Virus record (IMG/VR): IMGVR_UViG_2541047757_000003
Direction: 5' to 3' (one strand)
DNA: 4,932 bases
From: a virus
Lineage: Duplodnaviria > Heunggongvirae > Uroviricota > Caudoviricetes
The notes under the pieces: model-generated
What the model was told of the DNA's origin: nothing
Databases searched by the model: none
Seen by the model: only the letters and a program-made list of their open reading frames with translations
Program-made: the position numbers and the translations under genes
Shown here: one piece after another, positions 1 through 4,932 of the stretch
Numbering within the stretch: position 1 is the stretch's first letter
Layout of the letters: the number at the start of each line of letters is the position of its first letter

Positions 1-69
1 TACGGTGGAAATGACGCGGGTGCCGTCGTTAATCTCCAGCACCTGCACGCCGTGATGATAGTCACTCAT
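1..69 (-). CDS. FI: Tail sheath protein, 5' end only (first 23 codons; gene runs off the left edge)
   Basis: Reverse complement of 1-69 translates to MSDYHHGVQVLEINDGTRVISTV, which matches the N-terminus of P2 gpFI tail sheath as I recall it. A GGAG Shine-Dalgarno lies about 7 nt upstream of the ATG (67-69 on the minus strand). Confidence 0.8.
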   Translation of the reverse strand, partial: MSDYHHGVQVLEINDGTRVISTV

Positions 70-128: not shown

Positions 129-722
129 CTATTTGTCCCGGTTGGCTAAGGGATGACACAATTTATTCTTTGTCGCTGATGAGGGGAATTTTTTATAGAG
201 CGTGGACAGACCAATATCAAAAATCAGCGCCACACGTTGACGAGATTCCCCCGCAGCCAGCAACCGTCCGACCTGCTCCCACTCACCCGCAGTGAGTTTC
301 GGTCGTCCGCCACCAATACGACCTTTGGCTCTGGCCGCTTCCAGTCCGGCGCGTGTCCGCTCGACAATGAGTTCTCGCTCCATTTCAGCCAGGGCACCCA
401 TCACATGAAAGAAAAAACGCCCCATCGGCGTGCTGGTATCAATAGCATCCGTCAGGCTGCGAAAATTAACGCCGCGTTCGCGCAGTTCCTCAACCAGAAT
501 GACCAGATGCCGCATACTACGCCCCAGCCTGTCCAGCTTCCAGACCACCAGAGTGTCACCTGCTGATAATGTTCTGAGCAGTTTTTTCAGTCCCGGCCTG
601 TCGGACTTCGTGCCGCTGATTTTATCCTCAAAAATCAGCTCACATCCTGCACACTCCAGCGCGTTACGCTGCAATTCCGTGTTCTGGTCATTTGTTGACA
701 CGCGTACATAGCCAATAAGCAT
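129..722 (-). CDS. Serine DNA invertase (Gin/Pin/Cin/Hin family site-specific recombinase)
   Basis: The 197-aa ORF begins MLIGYVRVSTNDQNTELQRNAL, with the catalytic serine in the VRVSTxxQ motif. It has the conserved resolvase/invertase core (LVVWKLDRLGRS, GRFFFHVMGALAEMERELIVERT) and a C-terminal helix-turn-helix (RQRVALIFDIGLSTLYKK). It closely resembles Mu Gin and e14 Pin from memory. It sits immediately next to an inverted-repeat-bounded segment carrying tail-fibre cassettes. Confidence 0.93.
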   Translation of the reverse strand: MLIGYVRVSTNDQNTELQRNALECAGCELIFEDKISGTKSDRPGLKKLLRTLSAGDTLVVWKLDRLGRSMRHLVILVEELRERGVNFRSLTDAIDTSTPMGRFFFHVMGALAEMERELIVERTRAGLEAARAKGRIGGGRPKLTAGEWEQVGRLLAAGESRQRVALIFDIGLSTLYKKFPSSATKNKLCHPLANRDK

Positions 723-749
723 GATTATCCCCCTGAATAAAAACCGGGG

Positions 750-1244
750 ATGATGCCAGTTAGCTGTTACCTCTGCATTTTCTTAAACGTTGGAATAGGA
801 GAAACGGGAAAATACGACATTCTGCCAGCATCAAGAGGAGGCACTGGAGCGTCAACTATAGCCGGAGCATTGATAAACTTTGGTCTGAGTGATTTAGTGA
901 CTGCCGGATTAGTACAGGTGGAATCTGGTACAGACTTTATTACTGCTAAGATTCCATTTCTGTCCGGTGGTAGAAAGCGATTCCTGATGATACATGCCAT
1001 CAAGGCGACAATGCCTGCAAATAATAACGGGTATAACCTTACTGTTACATTCCCAACTGCCTATGATAATGCACCGATACCAATTCTTGGCTCGACCGTA
1101 GGGTCGACTTCAACAACGGGTGGTACCACAGAGTCAATGAATATTTCATCAGTCACAAAATCGGGTTGCATCATTTCTTCAGCATGGCAAACATGGTCTG
1201 AGGGACCGGTATATCTTTTAACGATTGGAGGAGTTGCAGCATGA
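750..1244 (+). CDS. Alternative tail-fibre C-terminal cassette (S'v-like), promoterless and silent in this orientation
   Basis: The ORF runs into the left crossover site without a credible start or RBS; its first 14 codons cross the site. At the crossover it encodes FLNVGIGETGKYD, which parallels YLGLGEAAKRD at the crossover in H. The site cores sit in the same codon phase (positions 2-3 of codon 789-791 here, and of Leu276 in H). Its stop overlaps the next assembly gene start as ATGA. The functional cassette is about 792-1244 (150 codons). Confidence 0.7.
   Translation: MMPVSCYLCIFLNVGIGETGKYDILPASRGGTGASTIAGALINFGLSDLVTAGLVQVESGTDFITAKIPFLSGGRKRFLMIHAIKATMPANNNGYNLTVTFPTAYDNAPIPILGSTVGSTSTTGGTTESMNISSVTKSGCIISSAWQTWSEGPVYLLTIGGVAA
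778..803. repeat. Left crossover site of the invertible segment (gix/hix-like 26-bp site, central dinucleotide at 790-791)
   Basis: The plus strand reads TTTTCTTAAACG-TT-GGAATAGGAGAA. Its reverse complement, TTCTCCTATTCC-AA-CGTTTAAGAAAA, matches the right-hand site left half-site at 10 of 12 positions with the same AA core. It fits the 12-2-12 architecture of Gin/Hin sites (consensus roughly TTnTCnnAAACC-NN-GGTTTnnGAnAA) and lies about 55 bp upstream of the invertase start. Confidence 0.7.
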
Positions 1245-1627
1245 AATATTATTCACCTTCAATTAATGGATTTCCCGAACAAAAGACTGATGACAGTATT
1301 GAGATCAGTGAAGAGGTCTGGAGAATACTTCTTAGTGAAATTTACTCAGGCCGGGAGTTATTTAACGATGGCGGCGTACCCGCTACCCGTGTGCCGCAAC
1401 CTACGCAAGAACAAGTAATTGCAGCCGCAGAAAATGAGCGCCAACGATTGCTGAATTATGCTGATACCGTAATGCTCGACTGGCGTACAGAATTGATGCT
1501 GGGTGAAATCAGCGACGCCAACAGGGCTAAATTGTCGGCGTGGCTGGCTTATAAAAATCAAGTTAAGTCGGTTGATGTGACAACTGACCCTGAGCATGTT
1601 AACTGGCCTATTTCCCCGGAGGCGTAG
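1241..1627 (+). CDS. Tail-fibre assembly chaperone, alternative copy (U'-like, Tfa family)
   Basis: The 128-aa ORF ends with a motif I recognise from Mu U / P2 G / lambda Tfa-type chaperones (EQVIAAAENERQRLL ... WRTELMLGEISDANRAKLSAWLAYKNQV ... DVTTDPEHVNWPISP). Its start is coupled to the upstream fibre cassette by an ATGA overlap, and it lies inside the invertible segment. Confidence 0.8.
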   Translation: MKYYSPSINGFPEQKTDDSIEISEEVWRILLSEIYSGRELFNDGGVPATRVPQPTQEQVIAAAENERQRLLNYADTVMLDWRTELMLGEISDANRAKLSAWLAYKNQVKSVDVTTDPEHVNWPISPEA

Positions 1628-2039
1628 GCCATTCAATATCTGGCGCACCGGAAGTATCGACCAGTTCCAGTGCGTCCAGATAATCCAGCCACGAATTATA
1701 TTGCGCCAGTTCCTCTCCTTTCAGACGACCAATCGCCGCTTTACCAGGCCATTGCTTACTGTTTATGTATTCGTTGACCTGATTAATCAATTGCTGCTTT
1801 TCCAGTTCGGCTGCGGCAATTTGTTCCTCATGAGTTGGCGGTGGAATATCAATCCATGCTGGCATTCCGTCGATGACACATCTGTATTTTCCTTCTGGTG
1901 CTTCCTTCATAAATTCGGCGGCAACAGTGTCGTCAATTTCGATTCCATCATCGGGCCATTCGCCGGATTCCTGATAAGCGATTTTAAGCTCCACAGGGAA
2001 AAACGCATTTTTCTCGGCACTGAAAATATATTTCTGCAT
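1608..2039 (-). CDS. Tail-fibre assembly chaperone, currently expressed copy (U-like, Tfa family)
   Basis: The 143-aa ORF sits directly downstream of H on the same strand, with a 2-bp gap and an AGGA-type RBS. It carries the same C-terminal Tfa-like motif (EEQIAAAELEKQQLI ... DTSGAPDIEWPTPP). Its 3' end converges on and overlaps the U'-like gene by 20 bp. Confidence 0.8.
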   Translation of the reverse strand: MQKYIFSAEKNAFFPVELKIAYQESGEWPDDGIEIDDTVAAEFMKEAPEGKYRCVIDGMPAWIDIPPPTHEEQIAAAELEKQQLINQVNEYINSKQWPGKAAIGRLKGEELAQYNSWLDYLDALELVDTSGAPDIEWPTPPGK

Positions 2040-2041
2040 TT

Positions 2042-3226
2042 CTACCGTCCTATCGAAATATAACTGAATCTGTATTGCTGTGAGATATCACTGGTTGCCA
2101 CACGCCACGCTGAATTACTGATATGTTCAAAATTTACAGACAAAACCTGCGGGGCAGGATTCGACGGGTCTGACTGAACGGCATCAGACATAACACTGAC
2201 TGAAACCATCGGCTGATTAGGGAATGGTATAGGGAAGTGTCCACTGATAAAGCGGGTCGTGTTTCCTGAAAAAGTGCCAAACTGAACAATATATCCACCT
2301 GGTAGCCTGAACCATCCCGAACCAGAAGCGAATGCTCCCATATCAGGTATCTGATTATCTCCTGTGCCCACATCCCTTTTCGCCGCTTCTCCTAAACCAA
2401 GGTATGTGAGAAGACCAGCTACATCCTTTCCACTCAAATTAGTCAGCGTATTGTCCAGCGGTTGTTTACCTGCCAGCGCATTGTTAATGGTGGTGCTGAA
2501 TTTCGGGTCATTGTTAATGGCTGCGGCAATTTCTTTCAGTGTATCCAGCGTGGCAGGCGCACCGTTAATCAGAGCGGTAATAACCGCCTGAACAAACGCA
2601 GTGGTCGCAATCCGCGTGGTGTTATTTCCTGCAGCAGGCGTCGGCGCTTTTGGTTCTCCGGTAAATGTCGGATTATGTTTCTGTGCATACTGGGTATGAG
2701 GATCCTGTGCGGCAATATGGTTTCTCATCTGGTCATCCACATACAGCCTTAATTCCAGGACTTCATCATCCACGTATTTACGGGTCGCCAGTACCACCGA
2801 CGGGTCGATTTTCAGCGTGATAGCTTCGGTATTCGTGACAACCAGAATCATGCGGATAGTCTGGGTACGACCGCTGCCTTCCTGCAACTGCGGTTTGTAC
2901 GTTTCCGGGCAGTTCGCCACCGCAATGAGTACGCCTTCATCATCATAAAGCCCAATCTCACGGATCCAGAATCCGCCCTCGTTCTCAGGGATGATTTGCT
3001 CCGCAATAATCTGGCTCTGGTTATTCGGGTCAACACTCAGAAGATTCAGCGGTGCAATGCGTTTCTGGTTAATCAGTTTTGTCTGTGCCGGGTCTGGTGT
3101 CGGCAAGACACCATTCGCATCACCAACGGCCATTTGCGTCAGATTCAGCTTACTGCCGAGCATCGTCGCGTTAGCCAGCCGTGCTGCGCCCTGATTAGTC
3201 AGAATGGCGTAGTATTTCACTGTCAT
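2042..3226 (-). CDS. H: Tail fibre protein: constant N-terminal part (about aa 1-276) fused to the currently selected variable C-terminal tip (about aa 277-394)
   Basis: The N-terminus (MAVGDANGVLPTPDPAQT ... GGFWIREIGLYDDEGVLIAVAN ... YKPQLQEGSGRTQTIRMILVV ... YVDD) resembles the P2 gpH N-terminal domain from memory. The start overlaps the stop of gene I as ATGA. The right crossover site lies within the coding sequence at 2387-2412. Confidence 0.88.
   Translation of the reverse strand: MTVKYYAILTNQGAARLANATMLGSKLNLTQMAVGDANGVLPTPDPAQTKLINQKRIAPLNLLSVDPNNQSQIIAEQIIPENEGGFWIREIGLYDDEGVLIAVANCPETYKPQLQEGSGRTQTIRMILVVTNTEAITLKIDPSVVLATRKYVDDEVLELRLYVDDQMRNHIAAQDPHTQYAQKHNPTFTGEPKAPTPAAGNNTTRIATTAFVQAVITALINGAPATLDTLKEIAAAINNDPKFSTTINNALAGKQPLDNTLTNLSGKDVAGLLTYLGLGEAAKRDVGTGDNQIPDMGAFASGSGWFRLPGGYIVQFGTFSGNTTRFISGHFPIPFPNQPMVSVSVMSDAVQSDPSNPAPQVLSVNFEHISNSAWRVATSDISQQYRFSYISIGR
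2387..2412. repeat. Right crossover site of the invertible segment (gix/hix-like 26-bp site, central AA at 2399-2400), embedded in H
   Basis: The plus strand reads TTCTCCTAAACC-AA-GGTATGTGAGAA. The left half-site is a good match to Gin/Hin half-sites (TTCTTGAAAACC or TTATCCAAAACC type). It is in inverted orientation relative to the site at 778-803. Confidence 0.72.
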
Positions 3227-3834
3227 GCGTTTACTCTCAGGTTATCAATTAAATGAATGGCCGAGGCCGGGAAATAATCCCCTCCGACAATAATGGCCTC
3301 CGGGGTGTAGGGATAAACCGTCAGGGCGTCGCCGTGATAGCATCCCGCACCGGCAAAAATGTTGCCGGTTGTACTTAAACTGATAGCCAGTCCCGTCAGA
3401 TGGCGGCTTGCAGGTTTTGCATCAGCAACGAGACGCTCCAGCTCCTGATACATTTCCTCGGTAATACCCTGCTCAAGCACGCCAACAACGATGCGGAACG
3501 TCCCCGGCTCCTCGTTGAGCTGCCACCACTCCCTCACCTCAATCAGATAGCCGAGCGGCTCCACCACACGGCGAATCGCACCAATAGTGCCCTTATGGCA
3601 GTGAATGAAATACGCATCGCGGATAACAGCGCGTTTGGTCGCTTCCGGCCATTTATCATCCCACCTGTCGACCGAAAATGACCACGCCAGCCACGGCAGC
3701 AGATTTGCCGGGCAGGTGTCCGGGTTCCACAGCTCACGAATACTGACCGGCGTTTTTTCAATTTCCGCACAGGCTTTTGCGGCGGCAACTTCAAGCGGTG
3801 ATGAGCCGGTCGGCAGCAGGCGCGAATCACTCAT
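3223..3834 (-). CDS. I: Baseplate assembly protein I (P2 gpI-like)
   Basis: The 203-aa ORF sits between J and H on the same strand in the conserved P2 order. Its start overlaps the end of J by 8 bp and its stop overlaps the H start. The true start could be an internal Met; the P2 gpI I recall is somewhat shorter. Confidence 0.75.
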   Translation of the reverse strand: MSDSRLLPTGSSPLEVAAAKACAEIEKTPVSIRELWNPDTCPANLLPWLAWSFSVDRWDDKWPEATKRAVIRDAYFIHCHKGTIGAIRRVVEPLGYLIEVREWWQLNEEPGTFRIVVGVLEQGITEEMYQELERLVADAKPASRHLTGLAISLSTTGNIFAGAGCYHGDALTVYPYTPEAIIVGGDYFPASAIHLIDNLRVNA

Positions 3835-4735
3835 CCGAGCCTCCGGTCACGACGCGGTATTCAGTACAGAAAGACGCCTGCGTACTGTTGAGCACGATGT
3901 CAGCCAGAGGTGCAGTCAGTTCGACACGCTGCACGCCTTCCACATGCAAAGCGGCATAAATGGCAGACAGACGGATGTCGCGCCCAAGCCGGTGCTGTGC
4001 CGTGATGTACGCTTCCAGTTTTTTCACGGCAGCAGCGCGGATGGGTTCGCTTTCGGGACCTGGGTAAAGGTAAAGCGTGGCGTTTATCTGATATTCAACA
4101 ATGGCGGCAGACTGCACGGTCACGCGGTCGGCCACCGGCCTGACATCCTCGCCATTAAGGGCGTTACGCACCACGGCCAGCAGGTCTTCGGATGCGACAC
4201 CGTTATTTTCACGTGACAGCACGGAGATGGTGACGCAGGCCGGAGACGGACTGGTGACAGAGATATCTGCGACGCGCCCGTCGGCACTGCGACCATGATA
4301 CTGATAGGCACCCACCGACCCGGCAACGCTTAAACCTTCAAACGCCTGCTGAATACGCAGCCGATAATCGGTGTCAGATTCCATCACTGCCGGTGTCGGC
4401 GGGATGGTCGAATCGTCTGCCGGGGTGATAGTCAGGCGCGTGGTGTTGTAATTGGCACCAATCACATCAAGGTCATTACCGGCGGCACAGGCCAGCATTA
4501 CCGCCCGTGCGGCCTCATTCACACGCTGACGCCAGATAAGCTCACGATAAGCATTTTCCTCCAGCAGTTTGACGAGAGGCTCGGATTCCAGCGTCAGGGT
4601 ACGGGCAACCGCCTCCTGCTGGTCTTCCGGGTAAAGGGAAATCAGTGTCGCCTTGCGTTCGGCAAGAATGGTTTCAAAGTCCAGCTCCTCAACCACATCC
4701 GGTGCGGGTAGCTGGTTCAGGTCGATAATCGGCAT
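3827..4735 (-). CDS. J: Baseplate assembly protein J (P2 gpJ-like)
   Basis: The 302-aa ORF begins MPIIDLNQLPAPDVVEELDFETILAERKA, which matches the length and N-terminus of P2 gpJ as I recall them. It is flanked by W upstream and I downstream. Confidence 0.85.
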   Translation of the reverse strand: MPIIDLNQLPAPDVVEELDFETILAERKATLISLYPEDQQEAVARTLTLESEPLVKLLEENAYRELIWRQRVNEAARAVMLACAAGNDLDVIGANYNTTRLTITPADDSTIPPTPAVMESDTDYRLRIQQAFEGLSVAGSVGAYQYHGRSADGRVADISVTSPSPACVTISVLSRENNGVASEDLLAVVRNALNGEDVRPVADRVTVQSAAIVEYQINATLYLYPGPESEPIRAAAVKKLEAYITAQHRLGRDIRLSAIYAALHVEGVQRVELTAPLADIVLNSTQASFCTEYRVVTGGSDE

Positions 4736-4739
4736 GGTT

Positions 4740-4932
4740 TCAACTCACAGGGATGGTTAACGAAAGTGGCTGGCCGGTGTCGTTGTGCTGGCCGGTTAAC
4801 GTGACCGTCATTCGCCCGTCAAAGCTGCGCTCAGTGATGACGGATGACAGGGTGACGCGGGGTTCCCATTTCAGCACCGCCATGTAACAGGCGACCTTAA
4901 TCTGCAACTCAAGCGCCGGGGTCTGCGGCTGG
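4740..4932 (-). CDS. W: Baseplate protein W (P2 gpW-like), 3' portion only (gene continues beyond the right edge)
   Basis: Reverse-complement translation of 4743-4931 gives QPQTPALELQIKVACYMAVLKWEPRVTLSSVITERSFDGRMTVTLTGQHNDTGQPLSLTIPVS, then a stop at 4740-4742. This closely matches the C-terminal part of P2 gpW from memory. It is not in the ORF track because the start lies outside the window. Confidence 0.8.
   Translation of the reverse strand, partial: QPQTPALELQIKVACYMAVLKWEPRVTLSSVITERSFDGRMTVTLTGQHNDTGQPLSLTIPVS

Follow-up and report, generated by a model that had tools for sequence, protein, structure and literature searches.

The window analysed here, a stretch of 4,932 nucleotides from the tailed-phage record IMGVR_UViG_2541047757_000003, carries a DNA invertase gene, a tail-fibre gene and two opposed pairs of fibre-tip and chaperone genes. 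Is this a switch that still exchanges the end of the fibre, or the relic of one? We conclude with high confidence that the locus, part of the late tail operon of a P2-like (Peduoviridae) E. coli prophage, is a working invertible tail-fibre switch of the Gin/Pin type. The device is an ordinary, intact copy of a textbook phage mechanism, and its class, whose classic members are Mu G, P1 C and e14 P, is already well known.

A tail module of the P2 type

The following genes flank the switch.

1-69, minus strand: 5' end of a tail sheath gene (P2 FI type), with the start codon at 69; aligns to positions 1501-1569 of the related locus L001
3223-3834, minus strand: P2 I-type baseplate/tail protein (Pfam Tail_P2_I, E=3e-56)
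3827-4735, minus strand: baseplate J protein (Pfam Baseplate_J, E=1.9e-23)
4740-4932, minus strand: 3' part of a W/gp25 baseplate wedge gene (weak match to Pfam GPW_gp25), cut by the window end

The late operon runs W-J-I-H on the minus strand, and the order W-J-I-H-G followed by the sheath gene FI, together with the P2-type domains, marks the module as P2-like (Peduoviridae). In L001, the CDS at 379-1569, of which window positions 1-69 are the start, is annotated 'phage tail sheath protein', and a full 'GPW/gp25 family protein' is annotated at the position of W. A truncation of the prophage after W is unsupported, the window simply stopping where scaffold KE699863.1 has a run of N.

Invertase gene and candidate enhancer

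129-722, minus strand: Gin/Pin-type serine DNA invertase, 197 aa, intact (Pfam Resolvase, E=2.9e-52; HTH_7, E=4e-11)
638-700: candidate Fis-bound recombinational enhancer, two 15-mers (686-700 and 638-652) within the invertase gene

A preliminary description of this DNA had placed a serine invertase at 129-722, which is borne out by both Pfam domains and by 79% identity to Mu Gin over 181 aa. The protein also matches the PDB chains of Gin (3uj3/4m6f, E about 1e-92) and PHROG 125 'DNA invertase' (E=4e-99), is 87% identical to one annotated PinE, and retains the Ser9 motif VRVSTNDQ as well as the conserved DRLGRS and E-helix motifs. As judged by its size, its Resolvase and HTH domains and these motifs, it is a member of the Din family (Gin, Cin, Pin, Hin).

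The putative enhancer comes from a home-made Fis motif scan, which is noisy (about 11 matches per sequence) and from which only a position-conserved pair 48 bp apart was retained. The two 15-mers have their centres at that spacing, the proximal one lying 97.5 bp from the centre of crossover site L (see below). Mu gin and pinE likewise have matches at these positions, in a region that also encodes conserved residues, so that coding constraint confounds their positional conservation. This geometry agrees with that described for Hin, in which a 65-bp enhancer inside the invertase gene has its sites 47 bp apart and lies about 100 bp from hixL (PMC3798978). By analogy with Gin and Hin, inversion here probably needs host Fis bound to the candidate enhancer.

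Two crossover sites border the segment

778-803: site L (gix/hix type), TTTTCTTAAACG-TT-GGAATAGGAGAA, core TT at 790-791
2387-2412: site R, TTCTCCTAAACC-AA-GGTATGTGAGAA, core AA at 2399-2400, within H codons 272-280

The window was scanned with the consensus TTNTCNNAAACCNNGGTTTNNGANAA, which we take to be that of Mu gix and Salmonella hix and which is independent of the window, allowing up to 3 mismatches. Exactly two matches were found, at 778-803 and 2387-2412, against a chance expectation of 0.01, and none of 200 shuffled sequences yielded two. The inverted 26-bp gix/hix-like sites proposed earlier are thus the only two that the consensus detects. In Mu, and in every other related locus with the entire segment, it likewise found exactly two sites, at the borders. 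The central dinucleotides, TT and AA, are reverse complements of each other, as needed for inversion, and site L aligns with Mu gix at an equal distance from the invertase start codon. Viewed simply as an inverted repeat, the sites are weak (35 nt at 71%); the evidence for them is the motif, not the length of the repeat.

Site L deviates from the consensus at 3 positions, and on the tip B side the inner half-site, TTCTCCTATTCC (TATTCC), is atypical compared with the consensus AAACC. Because of these two features, switching could be slow or biased.

Six metagenome contigs, with H genes only about 84% identical, carry the same 30-nt stretch comprising site R and its flank; having been picked by exact site match, these contigs form a biased sample for judging conservation. 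In this exact-pattern scan for the H-side junction, all six had native-type inner half-sites and other tips, and the same scan of species-representative genomes found none. Neither the scanned metagenome contigs nor the species-representative genomes yielded junction 2 in its flipped form for this exact prophage.

Two tips, two chaperones and one shaft

2399-3226, minus strand: constant part of H, residues 1-276 (Pfam Phage_tail_fib, tail-collar fibre N-terminal domain, E=2.1e-62)
2042-2398, minus strand: tip A, H residues 277-394 (118 aa) plus stop, the C-terminus expressed at present (Gp53-like_C, E=5.2e-8)
1608-2039, minus strand: chaperone A (P2 G type), 143 aa, now downstream of H (Caudo_TAP, E=1.1e-34; PHROG 188, E=1.3e-61)
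792-1244, plus strand: tip B cassette, 150 aa (792-1241) plus stop, silent in the present orientation
1241-1627, plus strand: chaperone B, 128 aa (Caudo_TAP, E=1.1e-19; PHROG 188, E=1.8e-32)

The fibre gene H thus spans 2042-3226 on the minus strand, at present fused to tip A. Tip B has no start of its own within the segment; the ORF at 750-1244 opens with 14 codons that lie outside the segment and do not belong to the cassette. The start of chaperone B overlaps the stop codon of tip B (ATGA). Read from the sequence and its ORFs, both cassettes are intact, each with a tip, a coupled chaperone and a ribosome-binding site. The two opposed pairs described previously are therefore present, with Caudo_TAP chaperones (32% identical to each other) and with tips of exactly the 118 and 150 residues then reported for H 277-394 and the plus-strand cassette.

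The tips had also been called unrelated. At the sequence level this holds, BLASTP and hhalign of tip A against tip B finding nothing beyond the junction peptide; a common fold may nonetheless exist, as both sequences touch Pfam Gp53-like_C, tip B at E=0.0016, below the family cut-off. The only other family match of tip B is also weak (PHROG 11393 'tail fiber protein', E=8.6e-5). AlphaFold2 models built on shallow alignments were too poor for use (mean pLDDT 34 for tip B and 46 for tip A). A PDB sequence search returned no significant match for tip B; the sole match of H was to a 'tail collar fibers, gp4' chain, at residues 206-267. For the fibre and chaperone genes NCBIfam was uninformative. 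Tip A belongs to 395 database clusters from E. coli, Salmonella, Klebsiella, Enterobacter and Citrobacter, many of them unfused ORFs of about 132 aa, whereas tip B is rare, with 15 protein clusters.

Both orientations occur in public assemblies

The expectation that inversion would join the constant region of H to the plus-strand tip was examined by modelling the flip at the central dinucleotides. This gave an in-frame H-tip B protein of 426 aa, with chaperone B downstream. A contig with this structure exists: L018 (DAYUNY010000270.1, GCA_043390775.1) aligns in one piece, over 2395 bases, with positions 1-2395 of the flipped model at 100.000% identity, while the source contig in the native orientation, L010, equals the window at 100%. 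Since the sites differ on either side of the core and L018 matches throughout, the joint must lie within 790-793. Identical runs common to both sites measure just 4 and 8 bp, too short to produce an assembler misjoin.

The second recombinant junction is spanned by one contig, L022, a relative about 97% identical and the sole attestation of junction 2. Its partial E. coli protein, P0009, reads GKDVAGLLTYLG followed directly by IGETGKYD, so that a P2-type H shaft passes into tip B at the residue predicted. In two sibling P2-like prophages, L004 and L005, the flanks are collinear (97% identity) and 1417 bp of the segment are inverted. Both orientations thus exist, joined at the core, in different isolates; this, together with the anatomy, bears out the earlier assignment to the Mu G / P1 C / e14 P class. 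The full-length 426-aa H-tip B protein was absent from a collection of 5.8 billion proteins. A switch of this kind also explains the breaks of short-read assemblies at the crossover sites.

Alternative explanations

We considered the possibility that this copy no longer inverts and is fixed in its orientation, through weak sites, a silent invertase or the lack of an enhancer. The mismatches in site L and the unusual half-site of tip B would fit such a relic, as would a simple sigma-70 scan of 723-800, which found no promoter-like site upstream of the invertase. Locked derivatives do exist (L007-L009), with the invertase deleted and tip B cut to 124 aa beside ogr. Yet the invertase ORF is not shortened and shows 79-87% identity to invertases that are either proven or annotated as such, neither tip and chaperone cassette is damaged, and an otherwise 100% identical copy is known in the opposite orientation, which implies that inversion followed essentially no sequence divergence. 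A frozen locus therefore appears very improbable. If co-resident prophages had undergone homologous recombination or exchanged cassettes, or if the assemblies were in error, opposite orientations would be seen without any part played by the invertase. Exchange between prophages is plausible in itself because the 1.6-kb segment is shared with Mu/e14-like tail modules (L003, L013-L017) at 93-99% identity, and many short-read contigs end at the crossover sites. However, the joint of L018 lies within the 4 bp that hold the predicted core, and its flanks match the window at 100%, as does its segment, where import from a 93-99% copy would differ; moreover, the longest identical run between the sites, 8 bp, is insufficient for homologous recombination or a k-mer misjoin. 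We hold this explanation to be extremely unlikely.

A switch that works could also belong to a tailocin, or to a prophage that is defective or has been domesticated, in which case it would vary a killing spectrum for the bacterium rather than a phage host range. Such a role has a parallel in carotovoricin Er, a phage-tail bacteriocin whose range is altered by inversion (cited in PMC4272514). The window shows a tail module only, the source scaffold is gapped right after it, and the remnant loci L007-L009 lack head genes. Against this, in L006, a locus 99.5% identical, the switch sits within a complete late region of the P2 type (gpL, gpX, holin, lysis genes, R, S, V, W, J, I, H, sheath, tube and tape measure), and the closest phage record, pro483, was deposited as a complete phage genome. 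We give the tailocin reading little credence.

Proposed mechanism and significance

Under the reading that we prefer, a working switch in a P2-like prophage, dimers of the invertase would bind both 26-bp sites and cut at TT/AA (790-791 and 2399-2400), after which the enzyme would rotate and rejoin the ends, inverting 1.6 kb. We infer that this particular enzyme is the catalyst and that switching takes place within a single clone. In the present state, residues 1-276 of H run into tip A, followed by chaperone A; in the inverted state, the same shaft would continue in frame into tip B (426-aa H), followed by chaperone B. From this alternation of H-tip A and H-tip B, a lysogen population would release two kinds of virion differing in the fibre tip. 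By analogy with known systems, the two tips presumably have different receptors or host ranges.

Tip B is found on four different shafts (the P2-type H, an e14/Mu-like shaft and two others), always with the junction LG-IGE. This may hint that tip B and its chaperone form a rare, uncharacterised receptor-binding cassette that moves between unrelated shafts by recombination at the conserved crossover site, and that its half-site biases the P2-type switch strongly towards tip A, leaving tip B as a rarely displayed reserve specificity; we offer this tentatively and consider it rather doubtful. If its receptor were found, tip B could be a useful new receptor-binding module for the engineering of phages or tailocins. 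The locus is best annotated as a single phase-variable fibre gene whose 3' end comes in two alternatives, rather than as a 'phage tail protein' and a stray ORF. Beyond correct annotation the finding matters little, the mechanism itself being textbook.

Comparison with known systems

The closest phage match is the Peduovirus Escherichia phage pro483, which is 96% identical over 73% of the window. Its gene order is the same, it has a gene annotated 'DNA invertase', in the Z/fun position, and its fibre and chaperone genes again form two opposed pairs, but its cassette pair lacks tip B and chaperone B; the literature on pro483 contained nothing relevant to inversion that we could find. A precedent, by published description, for phase-variable tail-fibre inversion in this kind of phage comes from EPEC E2348/69, where inversions in two P2-like prophages, which also have an invertase in the Z/fun position, were demonstrated in 2014 by whole-genome sequencing and PCR (PMC4272514). 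According to a 2024 preprint, the Z/fun hotspot of P2 often encodes a DNA invertase, with inversion of the adjacent genes.

The e14 P/PinE system has the same 1.6-kb segment with both cassettes, at 93-99% identity, adjoining an invertase annotated pinE in E. coli USMARC-49610, and the same segment is carried by Salmonella-type contigs with Mu Gp45-48 baseplate genes. These e14/Mu-like loci differ in the shaft and in the baseplate genes (YmfQ, Gp46 and Gp47, in place of P2 I and J here), and in one of them, L003, the segment is oriented oppositely relative to the invertase.

Hin/hix shares the enzyme subfamily, the 26-bp sites and the 2-bp core. In contrast with the present locus, where the invertase lies outside the segment and coding 3' ends are exchanged, Hin flips a promoter and sits inside its segment. 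The order of elements here is that of Mu G/Gin: a shaft, a site, two opposed tip and chaperone cassettes, a second site and then the invertase, which in both cases lies outside the segment and reads away from it. The junction peptide of Mu G, NLGLQE, resembles YLGLGE and NVGIGE here. Mu G is larger, with a segment of about 3 kb as against 1.6 kb, the tips here being much shorter (118 and 150 aa), and the carrier here is not Mu but a contractile-tail module of the P2 type (W-J-I-H-G-FI).

Invertase and crossover sites

The preliminary description had read a serine invertase gene and two inverted 26-bp crossover sites from this DNA, and both are borne out here, within the following arrangement.

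Features of the window (coordinates, strand, assignment)
start at 69, minus: P2-type (FI) sheath gene, first 23 codons
129-722, minus: invertase, 197 aa, Resolvase+HTH_7
750-1244, plus: ORF with tip B (ATG at 750, end at 1244), facing the minus-strand operon
778-803: site L, TTTTCTTAAACG TT GGAATAGGAGAA, core TT at 790-791
1241-1627, plus: chaperone B, 128 aa, facing the minus-strand operon
1608-2039, minus: Tfa/G-type chaperone A, 143 aa, P2-type late tail operon
2042-3226, minus: tail-fibre gene H, 394 aa, tail-collar fibre N-terminal domain and Gp53-like C-terminal domain
2387-2412: site R, TTCTCCTAAACC AA GGTATGTGAGAA, core AA at 2399-2400
3223-3834, minus: P2 I-type protein, P2-type late tail operon
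3827-4735, minus: baseplate J, P2-type late tail operon
4740-4932, minus: W/gp25, 3' part, P2-type late tail operon

H and its chaperone are presumably expressed from a late promoter that in P2 precedes V, beyond the window. The invertase shares 79% identity with Mu Gin across 181 residues and 87% with a protein annotated PinE, and it keeps the Ser9 motif, DRLGRS and the E-helix motifs. Its gene is transcribed away from the segment, with site L 55 nt upstream of the start codon, the same distance as in Mu; a simple promoter scan found no promoter upstream of it. As the sheath gene follows the invertase and chaperone A precedes it, the invertase sits between G and FI. This interval is the P2 Z/fun hotspot, which often houses a DNA invertase, with adjacent genes inverted alongside (2024 preprint).

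As a plain inverted repeat, the two sites are weak (35 nt, 71%). They were sought with the consensus TTNTCNNAAACCNNGGTTTNNGANAA, which is based on the gix sites of Mu and the hix sites of Salmonella and is independent of the window, with at most 3 mismatches. Sites L and R were the only two matches in the window (chance expectation 0.01), and two matches were obtained in none of 200 shuffles. With 5 mismatches allowed, each related locus with the whole segment, including Mu, had exactly two sites, both at the segment borders. Furthermore, the core dinucleotides TT and AA are mutually reverse complementary, which is what religation after a 180-degree rotation by a serine invertase requires (Gin/Hin mechanism). 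The inner half-site of tip B reads TTCTCCTATTCC every time (window 792-803; position 5993 of L003, the pinE locus of E. coli USMARC-49610; position 112 of the contig L022), and the other tips have AAACC (AAATCC in one). With this half-site the invertase might bind less strongly, and switching might be biased.

Reading frames and evidence for inversion

In H, the core TT provides positions 2-3 of codon L276, and tip A runs from G277 (GLGEAAKRD..., 118 aa). In the plus-strand ORF, the last two bases of a GTT codon come from the core TT, and tip B runs from the next codon (GIGETGKYD..., 150 aa). These residue numbers and lengths are exactly those first proposed. Reverse-complementing 790-2400 in silico (the flipped model) yielded an uninterrupted 426-aa H, ending ...GKDVAGLLTYLG-IGETGKYD...VAA and followed by chaperone B, in agreement with the proposal that inversion joins H to the plus-strand cassette and brings the other chaperone downstream. 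The junction sequences, native and flipped, are TTTTCTTAAACGTTGGTTTAGGAGAA and TTCTCCTATTCCAAGGTATGTGAGAA. The first 14 codons of the plus-strand ORF, from the ATG at 750, fall outside the segment and do not belong to the tip B cassette; in shaft-fused tip B proteins, the residues preceding GIGE are unrelated to this stretch.

The flipped state was sought in public assemblies, i.e. in separate isolates rather than in one clone. Scaffold KE699863.1 of GCA_000457635.1 (L010) contains the window at 100% identity, in the native orientation. A 3141-bp contig (L018, DAYUNY010000270.1 of GCA_043390775.1) matches positions 1-2395 of the flipped model at 100.000% in one alignment, which runs from the sheath start through the invertase and the recombinant left junction and across the entire segment. 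Because the sites differ at 789 and 794-795, the joint in L018 lies within 790-793, 4 bp that include the predicted core. The longest runs shared from site to site are 4 and 8 bp, so neither a misjoin by the assembler nor homologous recombination would credibly account for it. The second recombinant junction is present in L022 (GCA_028758585.1), which aligns in one piece with 1328-2512 of the flipped model (96.8%) and whose product P0009 reads ...NALAGKQPLDNTLTNLSGKDVAGLLTYLG/IGETGKYD.... In two complete E. coli genomes, IAL7250 (L004) and 1916D18 (L005), the flanks of sibling P2-like prophages are collinear (97%) and 1417 bp of the segment is inverted. Across these isolates, inversion at the two sites has thus occurred repeatedly and, at least once, without any sequence change alongside.

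At least 17 short-read contigs start just within the left core, by about 4 bp (L013-L020; contig starts and ends at window 795 and 2392-2403), and 7 samples have the segment as a 1598-bp contig of its own, with a site at either end. Mixed orientations would produce such breaks, and so would two copies of the segment in one genome. The loci L007-L009 (about 3000-8600), 99.5% identical to window 858-4633, are a deletion derivative of the prophage in which J is N-terminally truncated, the invertase and site L are lost, and tip B, cut to 124 aa, directly adjoins ogr. This is a naturally locked tip-A-ON remnant, present in several assemblies. The unfused cassette end of L022 (1689-1864) holds ~130 bp of H-shaft-like sequence (87% identical to window 2383-2512); inverted repeats in L022 thus far exceed the 26-bp sites of the window in length and resemble in this respect those of the P1 C segment, which are also long.

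The window ends where the source scaffold has a run of N (window 4932; L010 653-1422). Past this gap (L010 1-652) lies a further convergent Tfa chaperone gene pair, one of which is 98.5% identical to window 1616-1820. The extra pair is probably a second invertible fibre region, brought in by scaffolding.

The two tips and their distribution

With BLASTP and hhalign, similarity between tips A and B was limited to the junction peptide, so the tips are indeed unrelated to each other at the sequence level. A shared fold is still conceivable, because the AlphaFold models of both were unusable. Tip A, a gp53-like cassette, is common: it has 395 clusters, in E. coli, Salmonella, Klebsiella, Enterobacter and Citrobacter, and unfused ORFs of about 132 aa make up many of these. 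Tip B is rare (15 clusters), and its family matches were all sub-threshold. By analogy, the two tips would plausibly bind different receptors. In P0006 (193 aa, Caudoviricetes MAG), a tip B variant, the N-terminal LPxSxGGTGAxxxAGAxxNxG motif is duplicated, which suggests that repeats have expanded in the tip's collar-like linker.

Chaperones A and B are 32% identical. Their convergent genes share 20 bp at the 3' ends (1608-1627), with a comparable overlap (about 20-29 bp) in the related loci L001, L002, L003 and L004, and both proteins have a similar terminal ...WP..P motif, coded on opposite strands.

Mu/e14-like tail modules (L003, L013-L017), which have pinE and ymfQ as well as Mu Gp45-48 homologues, contain the whole 1.6-kb segment, with both cassettes, at 93-99% identity. 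Tip B stands on four different N-terminal shafts (in the database proteins P0004, P0009, P0010 and P0012), the junction being ...LG/IGE in all; Mu S protein has NLGLQE across its own site. In the early 1990s, Sandmeier and Haggård-Ljungquist reportedly described such an arrangement, in which a crossover site also serves as a conserved peptide joint and so allows cassettes to pass between unrelated phages.

Discussion

Beyond the enzyme and its sites, the mechanism is inferred from the Gin/Hin paradigm, which it most likely follows. Hin requires an enhancer of 65 bp, which lies about 100 bp away from hixL and contains two Fis sites at a spacing of 47 bp (PMC3798978), and the stimulatory site of Mu G inversion lies inside the invertase gene (Kahmann 1985, as cited in PMC3798978). 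In the window, Fis-like 15-mers at 686-700 and 638-652 have centres 48 bp apart, and 97.5 bp separates the proximal one from the midpoint of site L. Equivalent positions score in Mu gin and pinE, in a crude scan of a region that also codes for highly conserved residues. The two 15-mers would fit the Hin geometry as a putative Fis-bound enhancer, and Fis bound at this candidate (638-700), within the invertase gene, would assist inversion as for Gin and Hin.

At least 80% of the window is present in 19 complete E. coli genomes. The gene order is the same in every related locus examined (three of these 19 genomes and one further genome) and in Escherichia phage pro483, where the invertase is annotated. 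In two P2-like prophages of EPEC E2348/69, phase-variable tail-fibre inversions were documented by sequencing and PCR (Goldberg et al. 2014, PMC4272514). A Gin-like enzyme, paired sites, an in-frame flip and both orientations across public assemblies uphold the initial assignment to the phase-variable tail-fibre switches, and the locus has every defining feature of Din-family tail-fibre inversion testable here, the enhancer being only a candidate. Its sole mildly novel element is tip B, which is rare, unclassified and has an atypical inner half-site. The window adds one more example to the well-known class of tail-fibre inversion systems.
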